DNA from: a virus
Taxonomy: Duplodnaviria; Caudoviricetes
IMG/VR virus record: IMGVR_UViG_3300013119_000806
Location: 1-62,584 of that record
Strand: one strand, 5' to 3'
DNA: 62,584 bases
Positions 1 through 15,726 of the stretch are shown here, piece by piece. The stretch's first letter is position 1; every line of letters begins with the position of its first letter. The notes beneath the pieces are model-generated. The model saw only the letters and a program-made list of their open reading frames with translations, did no database searches and was not told where the DNA came from. The translations under genes and the position numbers were made by a program.

Positions 1-63
1 AATGGATATGGCAACTCACTTCTAATGAGTAGAATCCTGGTTCGAGTCCAGGCGGAAGTGCCA
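1..63 (+). tRNA. tRNA-Arg(TCT), 5' end truncated by window edge
   Basis: Anticodon arm ACTCA-CTTCTAA-TGAGT; T arm CCTGG-TTCGAGT-CCAGG; ends GCCA. Confidence 0.92.
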
Positions 64-65
64 AT

Positions 66-143
66 GCCGCTTTAGCTTAGTTGCTCCAAAGCACCCCACT
101 TGTAATGGGGAGATCCTGAGTTGGAATCTCAGAAGTGGCTCCA
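66..143 (+). tRNA. tRNA-Thr(TGT) with non-canonical C19/G56
   Basis: Acceptor GCCGCTT/AAGTGGC; D stem GCTT/AAGC; anticodon arm CCCCA-CTTGTAA-TGGGG; T arm CTGAG-TTGGAAT-CTCAG; encoded CCA. Confidence 0.9.
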
Positions 144-145
144 TC

Positions 146-175
146 AGTCCTGGTCATGACTATATAAACTGACTA
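146..175 (+). ncRNA. putative H-type pseudoknot in tRNA spacer (PK-a)
   Basis: S1 AGTC(146-149)/GACT(158-161); S2 TGGTCA(151-156)/TGACTA(170-175); A-rich L3 ATATAAAC. Confidence 0.55.
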
Positions 176-179
176 TTGT

Positions 180-255
180 GCGTCCATAACTCAATTGGTA
201 GAGTGTCAGCCTTCCAAGCTGAATGTTGTCGGTTCGAGGCCGACTGGACGCTCCA
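180..255 (+). tRNA. tRNA-Gly(TCC)
   Basis: Acceptor GCGTCCA/TGGACGC; anticodon arm TCAGC-CTTCCAA-GCTGA; T arm GTCGG-TTCGAGG-CCGAC; T73 and CCA. Confidence 0.95.
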
Positions 256-333
256 ATAATGCTCCTTGGTTCAAGCGACGGAAGGTGACTTTTCACCGCT
301 TTTTGTTGAATGCTAGAGCACAAACTACTCAGC

Positions 334-364
334 CATACTACATACTACATAATACATAATACAT
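334..364 (+). repeat. 7-bp tandem repeat (CATACTA x2, CATAATA x2, CAT)
   Basis: Read directly; flanked by the inverted pair ACTCA/TGAGT; lies just upstream of the HNH gene. Confidence 0.85.
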
Positions 365-383
365 TGAGTTAGGGGTCGATATA

Positions 384-731
384 ATGAATTATTGCAGGGA
401 ATGTAGCAAGGTGTTCGATTATACACCAGAATTGCGGAAAAAGGGTTATAGGAAGTCTCTCTGCAATTCTTGTTCTGTGACTCTAGCCAGACGCAGGCGT
501 AAACAGAAAGCAATAGATTATAAAGGGGGATGCTGTCAGGTTTGTGGTTACAACAAATATAATGGTGCATTACATTTTCATCATATCAAGCCAGACCATA
601 AGGATTTTGCATTCTCAGCTAAAGGTATTCCTAGAACCTGGGAGGCTCAGAAAGTCGAACTCGACAAATGCACCCTGTTATGTTCTAATTGTCACAGCGA
701 AACACACGCCGGTTTGCTTGATATTCACTAA
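384..731 (+). CDS. free-standing HNH endonuclease (homing-endonuclease-like) inside tRNA array
   Basis: N-terminal CxxC pairs, then CQVCG...LHFHH...LLCSNCH..TH (HNH zinc-finger motif); AGGGG SD upstream. Confidence 0.88.
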   Translation: MNYCRECSKVFDYTPELRKKGYRKSLCNSCSVTLARRRRKQKAIDYKGGCCQVCGYNKYNGALHFHHIKPDHKDFAFSAKGIPRTWEAQKVELDKCTLLCSNCHSETHAGLLDIH

Positions 732-741
732 CAGCCTTTTG

Positions 742-815
742 GGGGGATTAGCTCAGTTGGTAGTAGCGTTACCTTTGCAAGGTAAATGTCATCCGTTCGA
801 TCCGGATATCCTCCA
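742..815 (+). tRNA. tRNA-Ala(TGC), CCA not encoded (ends A-CAA)
   Basis: Acceptor GGGGGAT/ATCCTCC with G3:U70 and A73; anticodon arm TTACC-TTTGCAA-GGTAA; T arm ATCCG-TTCGATC-CGGAT. Confidence 0.93.
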
Positions 816-838
816 CAACAGAGTGCGATTCTGGCTCT

Positions 839-865
839 TGACCTTGGTAGGTCATAAAACTGCCA
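839..865 (+). ncRNA. putative H-type pseudoknot in tRNA spacer (PK-b)
   Basis: S1 TGAC(839-842)/GTCA(851-854); S2 TGGTAG(845-850)/CTGCCA(860-865); L3 TAAAA. Confidence 0.55.
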
Positions 866-869
866 TTAC

Positions 870-957
870 GGAGAGTTGGCCGAGTGGTCGAAGGCGGTTG
901 ATTAGAAATCATCTGTAGCGCAAGTTACCGAGAGTTCGAACCTCTCACTCTCCTCCA
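870..957 (+). tRNA. tRNA-Ser(AGA), A34 anticodon, long variable arm
   Basis: Acceptor GGAGAGT/ACTCTCC; Ser-type D arm GGCCGAGTGGTCGAAGGC; anticodon arm GTTGA-TTAGAAA-TCATC (one T.T mismatch); variable arm GTAGC-GCAA-GTTAC; T arm GAGAG-TTCGAAC-CTCTC; CCA. Confidence 0.88.
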
Positions 958-992
958 AAGAAGTTAGCTGATCTTCTTGATCCAAAATCAGC
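958..992 (+). ncRNA. putative H-type pseudoknot in tRNA spacer (PK-c)
   Basis: S1 AAGAAG(958-963)/CTTCTT(973-978); S2 GCTGAT(967-972)/ATCAGC(987-992); both are perfect 6-bp stems. Confidence 0.62.
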
Positions 993-997
993 CCTGT

Positions 998-1069
998 GCT
1001 CGCATCGTCTATCGGTTAGGACTCAAGGTTTTCATCCTTGCAAGTGGGGTTCGATTCCCCATGCGAGTA
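998..1069 (+). tRNA. tRNA-Glu(TTC), CCA not encoded (ends A-CAA)
   Basis: Acceptor GCTCGCA/TGCGAGT; anticodon arm CAAGG-TTTTCAT-CCTTG; T arm TGGGG-TTCGATT-CCCCA. Confidence 0.93.
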
Positions 1070-1078
1070 CAACAACAC

Positions 1079-1127
1079 TAAACCCACCCTTCTCATTAAA
1101 TTGAGTTGGGTGGGTTTTTCTTTTTTT
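1079..1127 (+). terminator. intrinsic terminator closing the tRNA operon
   Basis: AAACCCACCC...GGGTGGGTTT stem followed by a long T tract. Confidence 0.85.
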
Positions 1128-1139
1128 GTGCCCGCTTTC

Positions 1140-1146
1140 CTATTTA
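1140..1146 (+). promoter_or_regulatory. putative late promoter motif CTATTTA (first of many copies)
   Basis: Same 7-mer found upstream of genes at 2450, 3390, 4469, 5898, 9175, 13130, 42643, 47255, 50128, 53976 and 61523. Confidence 0.7.
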
Positions 1147-1150
1147 GAAC

Positions 1151-1375
1151 ATGAGTGTCCCCGAGATAGATTTACATGGACTACGACGCCGGCGAGCGGA
1201 ATCAGTCCTCAGGAGTTGGATCCCTCGCCAGAGGGTCCCTTTCCGTATTATCACGGGCAACGGAGGCACACTCGCCAAACTAGCGAAAGAGATTTTAGAC
1301 GCCAAAGGTTATAAATACCAAAACGCAAGTGATTGGAATTTAGGATGCCTTGTTATTTACGAAAGGAAGAGATAA
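1151..1375 (+). CDS. stand-alone Smr (small MutS-related) domain protein
   Basis: IDLHGL and FRIITGNGG motifs, C-terminal NLGCLVI strand; 74 aa. Confidence 0.8.
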   Translation: MSVPEIDLHGLRRRRAESVLRSWIPRQRVPFRIITGNGGTLAKLAKEILDAKGYKYQNASDWNLGCLVIYERKR

Positions 1376-12746: not shown

Positions 12747-13089
12747 GGGGATGAAATGGATTCGATTGGGAGGAAGAGATAGAGTAGTGCAGGGGTGAGG
12801 GAAGCGTGGCTCACTAAAAACGCTTAAAAAGATAATTGCAAATGACAATTTCAACATGGAGATGGCGGCGTAAAAACCTAACCACTCTTGAGGCGACAAC
12901 TGCCGATAAACAGAAAGTTGCTTGAGTAAGAGAACCCTCGGATGTCAATAAAAACTTCAGTGCTCAGAGGCAAAACAAAGCAAAGAAGTATAGTCAATGT
13001 TGTAATGACGATAAAATACAACTAACCCTGTGAACGATTGTTTTATTGATACTTTCAACACGACGGTTCGATGCCGTCCATCTCCACCA
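12747..13089 (+). ncRNA. ssrA: tmRNA, tag (A)ANDNFNMEMAA
   Basis: 5' GGGGATG..GGATTCGA pairs with 3' CATCTCC-A-CCA (G3:U70); T arm GACGG-TTCGATG-CCGTC; PK1 GTGAG/CTCAC plus AAGCGT/ACGCTT; resume codon GCA at 12838 after ATAATT, TAA at 12871-12873. Confidence 0.95.
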
Positions 13090-13119
13090 AGGAGCCTCTT
13101 CGGGGGCTCCTTTTTCTTT
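13089..13119 (+). terminator. intrinsic terminator after tmRNA
   Basis: AAGGAGCCTC-TTCG-GGGGCTCCTT-TTTCTTT. Confidence 0.88.
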
Positions 13120-13170
13120 GATGTCCAACCTATTTATAGATATAGAGAACCCCTAACAGCGAGGAATAAA

Positions 13171-15726
13171 ATGAAGAAGACCTACCTCTTGGACACTAAT
13201 GTCTACATGACCGATGCTAATGCCCTCTTCAAATTCGAAGACAACGACATTATCATCCCCACGATCATCCTCGATGAGATCGACCGACACAAGAGCCGCC
13301 AAGATTCAGCAGGAGCCCACGCCCGCCAGTTCAATCGCATCCTCGACGGACTCCGCTCAGAAGGCTCCCTCTATACAGGGATCAGTCTCGGCGAGAACAA
13401 AGGCACAATCAAGGTAGTCGCCTGCGACAACGAGAACCACCTCCCAGCAGGTTTCGACAAAGGACACTCAGACAACAAGATGCTCGCCGCCGCCCTAAGC
13501 CTCACCACCGAGGTCATCATCGTCAGTCGAGACATCAACTTCCGTGTCAAGTGCGACGCAGTCGGCATTCCCTGCGAAGGCTACGAGAACGAGAAGGTCG
13601 TAGACAACGCAGACGACCTCTACTCAGGCGTAGCCGATGTCCTCGTCCCAAGAGAGCAGATAGACCTCATCTACTCAGGAGGCGAAGTCATCCTTTCGGT
13701 AACAAAAGAAAAAGACCTCTACATCAATCAATACCTCGTCCTAGGAGCCGAAGAAGCCCCAAGGCAGACTATCCTCGTCAGATACCAAGGTAAAGGACTC
13801 CCACTAAGACGCCTACATACCTCACGAGAAGAAGTATGGGGACTGAGAGCGAGAAACAAAGAGCAAGAGTTCGCAATAGACGCCTTGATGGACCCTAACA
13901 TTAAACTGGTGACCCTCGTAGGACGAGCAGGCTCAGGGAAGACCTTGATAGCCATTGCAAGCGGTATGGAACAAGTGATACAAGCAAGAAAGCACAAGAC
14001 ACCCTTCACTAAGTTGATGGTGTCGAAGCCAGTAGAAGCGGTCGGCAAGGATATTGGGTTTTTGCCCGGTCCGCAGCCACTTGACGCTAAGATACTCACC
14101 CCATTTGGATGGTCTACAATGGGCGAGATGAAAATTGGTTCTGAGGTGATAACAGAGGAAGGGATTTCCGCAGAAGTTTTAGGTGTATATGACCAAGGTG
14201 TGAAGGATATCTACCAAGTCAAGACCACCGATGGAAGGGTGACCGAATGTTGTGCGGACCATTTGTGGTTTACAACTACGAATGCCGAGAGAAGACGCCC
14301 AGGTAATAACGGAAAAGTAAGAACTCTATTAGAAATAAAAGACACCCTACATTCCACCGATAAGAAGTTTTATGGGAAATTAGAACATATTTTACCCAAG
14401 GTGTTACCTGTGGTTTATAAGACAGAGGGTATAACAACGAAGGACATCCCTCCCTATGTGATGGGTGCTTTATTGGGTGATGGCTCTTTTGGCAAGAGCG
14501 GTAAAGTGTGTATAGCCAGCATCGATGAGGAAATAGTGAATCGCATTAGACGAGAACTTGAACCCATGGGGTGTGAACTCTCAAGCCCAAAGTCAGGGAT
14601 AGTGTATTCTATAAATGGGAGACTCTATAATAATAAAACCGCCAAAAGAGTACAAGTCACAGGTGAGAGTGGAAGCGATATTTATCATTCGGTCGGTTTG
14701 GCATCTGCAAAACTAGGTGTTAGCAGCGGCACAATTGGTTATCGATGCAAGAATAATAGCACTATTGATGGTAAGCGGTATAATTTCTTAGAACCTTCAA
14801 CACGCTGGACGAACCCCGTCAGGGAACAACTCCATTTGCTTGGTTTGTTAGGGAAGACAGGACAAGACAAATTTGTACCAAGAAAATATATGACTGCCAG
14901 TATAGAGGATCGTCTGAATCTGTTACGGGGATTGATGGATACCGACGGAGGGGTCAATAAGAAGAAAGGTAGCGCCTGTTTTTGGAACACATCTTATCAT
15001 CTGGCGAGTTCTGTGTGTGAGTTGGTGAGATCACTTGGGGGGACAGCAAAGATATCAGAGCGCCACCCACGAAAATCCACCTTTTTGGATGGAAGAGAGA
15101 TAAAATCAAATAAAACTTGTTATGAGGTCAACCTCTCAATACAAGGGGGATATAACCCGTTCTACCTTGCCAGGAAAGCAAAATATTATAAATCTAAATA
15201 TTCACGGATGATTAAGATTGAAAGCATTGAGAAAATAGGGCTTAAGGAAGCGAGGTGTATTAGAATTGGTAGCACTCGACATCTTTATGTAACTGATGAT
15301 TTTATTGTCACGCATAATACCTTAGAAGAGAAACTAGGACCTTGGCTCGCTCCGATCAAGGATAACTTGGAAGCATTGATGGGCGACAAGGTGGCTATGG
15401 AGACCTATATGGAGCAAGGCGTCATCGAGATCGAGGCAATCACTTTTATCCGTGGTCGTTCTATCGCCAATGCCTATATGATCATCGATGAAGCTCAGAA
15501 CCTCAATGTCCACGAGATCAAGACAATCCTCACCCGAGTAGCTGACGGAACAAAGATCATCTTGACAGGAGACATCCAACAGATCGACAACTCGTATGTA
15601 GACGCAGAATCTAACGGGTTGACTTATGCTGTTGAGAAGTTCAAGTCATACGAAATCAGCGCCCACATCACCCTATCGAAGGGTGAGCGAAGCGAACTAG
15701 CAACGTTAGCGGCAGAGATCCTATGA
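13171..15726 (+). CDS. phoH: PIN-PhoH (PhoH2-type) protein interrupted by an intein
   Basis: PIN motifs LDTNV, EID, SDNKML, SRDINFR; Walker A GRAGSGKT; IGFLPG; IRGRSI; IIDEAQN; GDIQQID. True start is ATG 13171 after GAGGA. Confidence 0.93.
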   Translation: MKKTYLLDTNVYMTDANALFKFEDNDIIIPTIILDEIDRHKSRQDSAGAHARQFNRILDGLRSEGSLYTGISLGENKGTIKVVACDNENHLPAGFDKGHSDNKMLAAALSLTTEVIIVSRDINFRVKCDAVGIPCEGYENEKVVDNADDLYSGVADVLVPREQIDLIYSGGEVILSVTKEKDLYINQYLVLGAEEAPRQTILVRYQGKGLPLRRLHTSREEVWGLRARNKEQEFAIDALMDPNIKLVTLVGRAGSGKTLIAIASGMEQVIQARKHKTPFTKLMVSKPVEAVGKDIGFLPGPQPLDAKILTPFGWSTMGEMKIGSEVITEEGISAEVLGVYDQGVKDIYQVKTTDGRVTECCADHLWFTTTNAERRRPGNNGKVRTLLEIKDTLHSTDKKFYGKLEHILPKVLPVVYKTEGITTKDIPPYVMGALLGDGSFGKSGKVCIASIDEEIVNRIRRELEPMGCELSSPKSGIVYSINGRLYNNKTAKRVQVTGESGSDIYHSVGLASAKLGVSSGTIGYRCKNNSTIDGKRYNFLEPSTRWTNPVREQLHLLGLLGKTGQDKFVPRKYMTASIEDRLNLLRGLMDTDGGVNKKKGSACFWNTSYHLASSVCELVRSLGGTAKISERHPRKSTFLDGREIKSNKTCYEVNLSIQGGYNPFYLARKAKYYKSKYSRMIKIESIEKIGLKEARCIRIGSTRHLYVTDDFIVTHNTLEEKLGPWLAPIKDNLEALMGDKVAMETYMEQGVIEIEAITFIRGRSIANAYMIIDEAQNLNVHEIKTILTRVADGTKIILTGDIQQIDNSYVDAESNGLTYAVEKFKSYEISAHITLSKGERSELATLAAEIL
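14071..15318 (+). mobile_element. class 3 intein (416 aa) with LAGLIDADG endonuclease and NUMOD1-like insert
   Basis: Inserted at FLPG|TLEEKL. Starts PQPLDAKILTP; block B ADHLW; block F ARCIRI; block G IVTHN; LAGLIDADG motifs MGALLGDG and LRGLMDTDG. Confidence 0.9.

Follow-up and report, generated by a model that had tools for sequence, protein, structure and literature searches.

The elbow pair G19-C56, which joins the D loop of a tRNA to its T loop, is usually taught as virtually invariant, and its outer face serves as a handle for RNase P, the L1 stalk, protein L5, T-boxes, and several enzymes. A tRNA-Thr(UGU) gene at the start of a viral contig carries this pair in the opposite orientation, C19:G56. 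Two questions follow: whether such a gene encodes a working tRNA, and what, if anything, the exchange is for.

The window, by which we mean the whole stretch of 62,584 bases analysed here, is an IMG/VR virus record with an estimated completeness of 33%. Its baseplate-wedge, SbcC-like, and PIN-PhoH genes indicate a T4-like myovirus, here an uncultured marine one. The tRNA-Thr gene belongs to a tRNA cluster that lies where the 5' end of the contig is cut. The features of this cluster are as follows.

1–63, + strand: 5'-truncated tRNA, anticodon loop CTTCTAA (Arg-UCU, by eye), canonical GG / TTC elbow; RF00005 39.9 bits, the contig end cutting the gene
66–143, + strand: tRNA-Thr(UGU) gene with encoded CCA; ARAGORN, cloverleaf drawing, Rfam RF00005 61.8 bits
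79–88, + strand: D loop of the tRNA-Thr, AGTTGCTCCA, with G18 at 83 and C19 at 84; sequence and ARAGORN bracket string
101–103, + strand: anticodon TGT of the tRNA-Thr, reading ACA, and ACG by wobble
121–127, + strand: T loop of the tRNA-Thr, TTGGAAT, with U54 at 121, U55 at 122, G56 at 123, G57 at 124, and A58 at 125; sequence and ARAGORN bracket string
180–255, + strand: tRNA-Gly(UCC), canonical elbow; ARAGORN, RF00005
384–731, + strand: small ORF within the tRNA cluster, weakly matching an HNH endonuclease (19.7 bits to Pfam HNH, under the cut-off of 21.4) and resembling large-phage HNH genes by blastn
742–1070, + strand: tRNA-Ala(UGC), tRNA-Ser(AGA), and tRNA-Glu(UUC), canonical GG / TTC elbows; ARAGORN, RF00005

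The elbows of the other five tRNAs in the cluster are thus of the ordinary GG / TTC kind. One of them is unusual at its anticodon: the tRNA-Ser at window positions 870–957 carries AGA, as does a tRNA-Ser at 1854–1941 of L347, a metagenome contig described below. In bacteria, A34 is normally confined to tRNA-Arg(ACG), and a serine tRNA with A34 is out of the ordinary; without inosine formation, such a tRNA would be limited to UCU. Farther along the window, ARAGORN places a tmRNA gene with the tag peptide ANDNFNMEMAA at 12747–13089; it lies just upstream of PIN-PhoH (13030–15726). The 898-aa PIN-PhoH protein has LAGLIDADG / Hom_end matches at about residues 616–703, which probably mark an intein; the PhoH homolog of L347, at 433 aa, is free of such matches.

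A tRNA-Thr gene with an inverted elbow pair

Infernal matched RF00005 to window positions 66–143 from end to end with 61.8 bits, compared with a gathering score of 29 (E = 1.2e-12). The six tRNA matches in window 1–1300 scored 67.7, 61.8, 56.4, 52.6, 50.8, and 39.9 bits, the last belonging to the 5'-truncated gene, which places the tRNA-Thr(UGU) second best. The initial annotation had warned that tRNA scanners may under-score this gene; ARAGORN calls it, and with the second-highest covariance score of its cluster that concern can be set aside.

The cloverleaf drawn by ARAGORN comprises a 7-bp acceptor stem, a 4-bp D stem, a 5-bp anticodon stem, and a 5-bp T stem, together with a 10-nt D loop, a 7-nt T loop, a 5-nt variable loop, and the anticodon loop CUUGUAA. 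A single G4.U69 wobble occurs in the acceptor stem, and the remaining stems are fully paired. The 3' end consists of U73 followed by CCA, encoded at 141–143. The four stems and the CCA are therefore intact, as had been described. Numbering of the D loop (79–88) gives A14, G15, U16, U17, G18, C19, U20, C20a, C20b, and A21, and that of the T loop (121–127) gives U54, U55, G56, G57, A58, A59, and U60. Accordingly, the elbow of this tRNA consists of C19 (window position 84) and G56 (window position 123) in place of the canonical G19 and C56, and the inversion originally reported is exact. Because no second G follows G18 in the D loop, a slipped GG cannot restore G19. The two bases are nevertheless capable of Watson-Crick pairing, as C:G.

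Apart from positions 19 and 56, every conserved tertiary position of the tRNA-Thr is canonical. These include U8-A14, G15-C48, G18, A21, U33, and A37 (after U36), as well as U12-A23 with A9, G53-C61, U54-A58, U55, and a purine at position 57. The decoding end is equally ordinary: ACA, which the anticodon reads directly, is the commonest Thr codon of the phage, accounting for 34% of the 1307 Thr codons counted across 26 long ORFs. G1-C72, C2-G71, G35, and U36 are all present in the sequence; work in E. coli and Thermus established these as the identity set of bacterial ThrRS. By bacterial rules, the tRNA would be compatible with ThrRS.

Thermodynamic folding of the gene proved uninformative. 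The minimum free energy (MFE) fold differs from the exact cloverleaf (z -1.76), as often happens with tRNAs, the cloverleaf having an energy of -24.2 kcal/mol versus -25.6 for the MFE structure, a gap of 1.4. However, the canonical tRNA-Gly next door behaves alike, with -26.8 for the cloverleaf versus -29.6 for the MFE structure and a gap of 2.8 kcal/mol, so the imperfect MFE of the tRNA-Thr says nothing about its integrity. Taken together, window positions 66–143 encode a genuine tRNA-Thr and not a pseudogene.

Reproducibility and relatives of the gene

Logan contigs of two sequencing runs (X1 and X2) cover window 1–234 with 0 differing letters; the two runs are two samples of one study, and one of them may be the source sample. 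The initial annotation had named GG and TTC at the elbow positions as the finding that would speak against the swap, and neither contig has them. The stretch is found in runs from marine or seawater metagenomes, with no RNA run listed among them; runs X3 and X5 gave no cover over the tRNA-Thr.

An ortholog of the tRNA-Thr is found in L347. Positions 929–1012 of that contig match window 61–144 with 96.4% identity over 84 nt (blastn), or 97% over the tRNA, and both C19 and G56 are kept in an identical D loop. Only two differences separate the ortholog from the window gene: G4.U69 becomes A4-U69, and G57 becomes A57, a purine-to-purine change that gives the T loop TTGAAAT. These changes are of the kind that a working tRNA tolerates, with the flipped pair kept in a diverged relative. 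The remaining blastn matches between L347 and the window, in the PhoH gene and the tRNA-Ser, are 71–74% identical. The contrast between 96% in the tRNA-Thr and 71–74% in its surroundings could reflect stronger constraint or recent transfer, and a purely neutral picture does not predict it. The canonical state of the other tertiary positions and the retention of C19/G56 in L347 both support the earlier proposal that selection maintains a functional tRNA.

L347 has two further features near this gene. A tRNA-Met(CAU) at 135–211, upstream of the flipped tRNA-Thr by about 720 nt, has an A19:U56 elbow (D loop AATTGATTA, T loop TTTGAGC); since the window is cut short of the position that would match this gene, the window phage may carry more swapped tRNAs. 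A contig of run X1, 1246 letters long, reaches beyond window position 1 into that upstream part. In addition, an ORF with a sub-threshold HNH_3 match begins 47 nt after the tRNA-Thr.

More distant relatives were sought through neighbouring proteins. For a 300-aa protein encoded nearby, no relatives were found. An RNaseH-like neighbour protein led to 25 loci, and no tRNA lies within 10 kb of it in any of them. Five of these loci come from more distant relatives (G001–G005), whose whole records contain tRNA-Thr(UGU) genes, all with canonical elbows. Relatives bearing the same swap, as foreseen in the initial annotation, thus exist in the form of the L347 ortholog, while the canonical genes of G001–G005 show that the phage group does not require C19:G56. 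One of these five, G005, also contains an odd tRNA-Gly(ACC)-like gene (locus L045, 1580–1654, minus strand) whose D loop is AGGGATCA and whose T loop is TGAGAGT; it lacks both U55 and C56 and adjoins canonical Arg, Met, and Thr tRNAs.

Alternative 19:56 pairs in viral and cellular tRNAs

To place the exchange among other tRNAs, IMG/VR viral contigs were scanned for a common D arm with any base except G after G18 and position 56 left free. At least 150 loci, in which ARAGORN called 972 tRNAs, supplied 102 distinct pattern-matching tRNAs among the matches listed. The 19:56 state of these 102 was A:U in 64, U:A in 14, and C:G in 10, the rest being C:C (nine), A:C (two), U:C (one), or unclear (two). 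Co-occurrence of C19 and G56, for which a search of phage tRNAs had been suggested, is therefore found repeatedly, and 88 of the 102 non-G19 viral tRNAs among the matches listed have the complementary base at position 56. The nine C:C cases, with D loops of the form ..TGCG.., are probably G18-x-G19 bulges and not mismatches.

A second choice of viral tRNAs was made on the T loop alone, using the remaining 726 distinct tRNAs of the same loci. C56 was absent from 31 of them, and 25 of these 31 have a G followed by the complement of position 56, with no GG in the D loop. One viral tRNA, a tRNA-Lys(UUU) in L108 (D loop AAAGTAA, T loop TTGAAGT), pairs U19.G56 as a wobble, which is the step expected to link the U:A state with C:G.

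The C19:G56 state itself is spread over several tRNA identities. Other tRNA-Thr(UGU) genes with this pair occur in L199 and in L118 and L191, the latter two sharing 95% identity; all are 65–67% identical to the window tRNA. Further viral or metagenome contigs have it in tRNA-Arg (L144, L150, L184, and L200), tRNA-Cys (L154 and L115), and tRNA-Pro (L351). The L351 metagenome cluster combines this tRNA-Pro(UGG) with an A19:U56 tRNA-Thr(UGU), and another metagenome cluster, L345, holds a tRNA-His with U19:A56. An exact search of IMG/VR with the 17-nt T arm of the window tRNA returned 13 stretches, none of them a tRNA, and a search for identical D and T arms with any bases at 19 and 56 found only a T5-like tRNA-Lys.

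Cellular genomes were surveyed with one genome per prokaryote species, using the same D-arm pattern and the added rule that position 56 not be C. All 122 cellular tRNAs among the matches listed are Watson-Crick at 19:56 (A:U 99, U:A 16, C:G 7), with no mismatch; as three bases are possible at each of the two positions, chance alone would make roughly a third of them complementary. Together with the viral tally, this result upholds the initial view that the double change is compensatory. The cellular cases listed are mostly tRNA-Arg, mainly tRNA-Arg(ACG). Bacteroidota make up the majority of the record titles listed, alongside Saccharibacteria, Planctomycetota, and others. Because 93 of the 120 cellular loci among the matches listed hold a lone tRNA, these genes are ordinary chromosomal ones. 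Of 151 Bacteroidota genomes sampled evenly, 13 (counting the centre genome) have A19:U56 tRNA-Arg genes, whereas a reversed-pattern control in the same 151 genomes gave none.

The two surveys are not measures of relative frequency: both sets of scan counts are lower bounds, from which phage and cell frequencies cannot be compared. Among neighbouring unselected tRNAs, C56 was absent from 3 of 54 at cellular loci versus 31 of 726 at viral loci, samples to which the way of finding the loci lends a bias and from which we claim neither an excess nor its absence in phages.

Meaning of the exchange and comparison with known systems

The literature explains why the elbow attracts attention. RNase P, T-box RNAs, the L1 stalk, and protein L5 are described as stacking on the flat distal face of the Watson-Crick 19:56 pair (PMC4810234), and the elbow anatomy is given likewise in another source (PMC7912444). 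Two sources call G19 and C56 conserved or virtually universal (PMC7912444; PMC4117946), and the latter reports a yeast suppressor screen that did not tolerate single changes at either G19 or C56. The literature searched yielded no account of natural swaps at 19:56 in the tRNAs of phages or bacteria, the one match for C19-G56 concerning tmRNA; older tRNA compilations, outside that scope, may list cases.

We consider it quite probable that the gene encodes a functional elongator tRNA-Thr(UGU) with an isosteric C19:G56 pair at the outer corner of its L shape, and that selection acts on the pairing and not on the bases. The flipped pair would keep the lock that joins the D loop with the T loop (G18-U55, U54-A58, and purine 57 stacked between) as well as the flat outer face on which RNase P, the ribosome, and other partners stack. 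The tRNA should then undergo processing, accept threonine from ThrRS, and serve to read ACA. That the flipped pair keeps the geometry would also explain how 19:56 can covary like a helix pair despite the intolerance of single changes, and in many phage tRNAs and some bacterial ones it seems to evolve in just this way. The counts may reflect the available routes. A:U could be reached from G:C through a G.U wobble, in keeping with its being the commonest state, and U:A and C:G could interconvert through U.G but would be reached from G:C only by transversions, in keeping with their lower counts. By default, the swap is taken to be near-neutral once compensated.

One consequence may lie in T-loop modification. 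TruB, the Psi55 synthase, contacts C56, which is described as 'strictly required' (PMC3973310), and C56 is named as a determinant for 2-thiolation of m5U54 in a further source (PMC7912444). Since the tRNA-Thr has G56 (window position 123) where TruB is reported to need C56, it is probably a poor TruB substrate that either lacks Psi55 or is modified by another route.

Several other accounts of the exchange can be weighed against this reading. It is an established idea that altered sequences let phage tRNAs evade defences that cut tRNAs, and the initial annotation offered such an escape as an example of what the swap might serve. In this view, the flipped pair would hide the phage tRNA from a T-loop-reading or C56/G19-reading nuclease or toxin of the host, so that tRNA-Thr is spared. 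Nothing in the window bears on this proposal, a search of 20 window ORFs having given no nuclease or toxin candidate linked to the tRNA-Thr. Swapped elbows do recur in phage clusters (3 of 25 tRNAs in a T5-like phage, the 31 of 726 neighbours at viral loci, and L347, L351, and L345), but no viral excess over the 3 of 54 cellular neighbours was seen in these biased samples, and the same kind of swap occurs in chromosomal tRNA-Arg genes of bacteria, whose housekeeping role means that the swap needs no defence setting. The tRNA-Thr is unusually well conserved between two diverged phages, as a counter-defence trait might be; G001–G005, on the other hand, use canonical tRNA-Thr, and no literature on elbow changes in phage tRNAs was found. 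We therefore regard escape from a host defence as unlikely. There is also a small chance of an 'orthogonal-elbow' class: phages, along with some bacteria, would preserve the fold of particular tRNAs but replace C56/G19, so that a factor reading these bases no longer acts on them. Such a factor could be a T-loop or elbow nuclease, a homing endonuclease, or a C56-dependent enzyme such as TruB that marks self and non-self; if so, conservation of the tRNA-Thr between phages that are otherwise 71–74% identical would mean that a useful cassette has been positively maintained or transferred.

Selection might instead have acted on the DNA, with a T-arm change blocking a homing endonuclease that targets tRNA genes and a D-loop change later restoring the pair. 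HNH-like ORFs lie within the window cluster (384–731) and 47 nt past the tRNA-Thr of L347, and HNH endonuclease genes annotated as F-TflII adjoin the T5-like tRNA-Lys. Both of the former matches, however, fall under Pfam cut-offs, the cleavage site is not known, and the bacterial tRNA-Arg cases are mostly lone genes (the 93 of 120 cellular loci among the matches listed), which leaves this route very improbable. Even less credence is due to a decaying pseudogene or an assembly or sequencing artefact. The description of positions 19 and 56 as virtually universally conserved (PMC4117946) and the departure of the MFE fold from the exact cloverleaf might suggest one, but the two changes are exactly complementary, the stems are intact and CCA is encoded, the contigs of two runs are identical, and the same pair recurs in the diverged L347 ortholog.

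The swap is thus real but fairly ordinary, being one of several recurrent alternative elbow pairs, and the practical course is to annotate the window gene as a genuine tRNA-Thr. That A:U, U:A, and C:G all occur both in phage clusters and in bacterial housekeeping tRNA-Arg indicates that the pair is kept and the bases are not, which fits shape-based recognition of the elbow through stacking. The same finding predicts a set of natural tRNAs without the C56 that TruB is reported to require, which would be ready test cases for the roles of Psi55 and of C56 recognition.

Comparison with named systems locates the window tRNA among its kin. It shares with canonical tRNA-Thr(UGU) (RF00005; for example, those of G001–G005) the cloverleaf, anticodon, CCA, G1-C72, C2-G71, and the tertiary positions besides 19 and 56, but differs in having C:G in place of G:C and a 10-nt D loop with a U-C-C stretch after position 19. 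The other viral and metagenome tRNAs with C19:G56 have the same flipped pair, several with the T loop TTGGAAT or a one-base variant of it. Except for the L347 ortholog (96–97%), none exceeds 67% identity to the window tRNA, so they are not close relatives of it.

The best database match of the window tRNA is a tRNA-Lys(CUU) of a T5-like Epseptimavirus (MT074447.1, 80744–80819; 82% over 74 nt). The two hardly differ in D arm, variable loop, and T arm, and the elbow of the tRNA-Lys is likewise non-canonical yet Watson-Crick. It is, however, A19:U56, with a D loop (AGTTGACCA) one base shorter and the T loop TTTGAAT, and the anticodon arm, acceptor stem, and amino-acid identity differ. This cultured T5-like phage has a replaced, complementary pair in 3 of its 25 tRNAs: Met (U19:A56), Lys(CUU) (A19:U56), and Ile (A19:U56). 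Three other cultured phages gave 0 of 14, 0 of 10, and 1 of 26, the last being an odd T loop of another kind. Finally, the chromosomal tRNA-Arg genes (ACG, CCG, and UCU) with A19:U56 differ from the window tRNA in being cellular housekeeping genes of another identity, with a purine19:pyrimidine56 pair reachable through a G.U wobble; what they have in common with it is a compensated replacement of G19:C56, here in a tRNA needed for normal translation.
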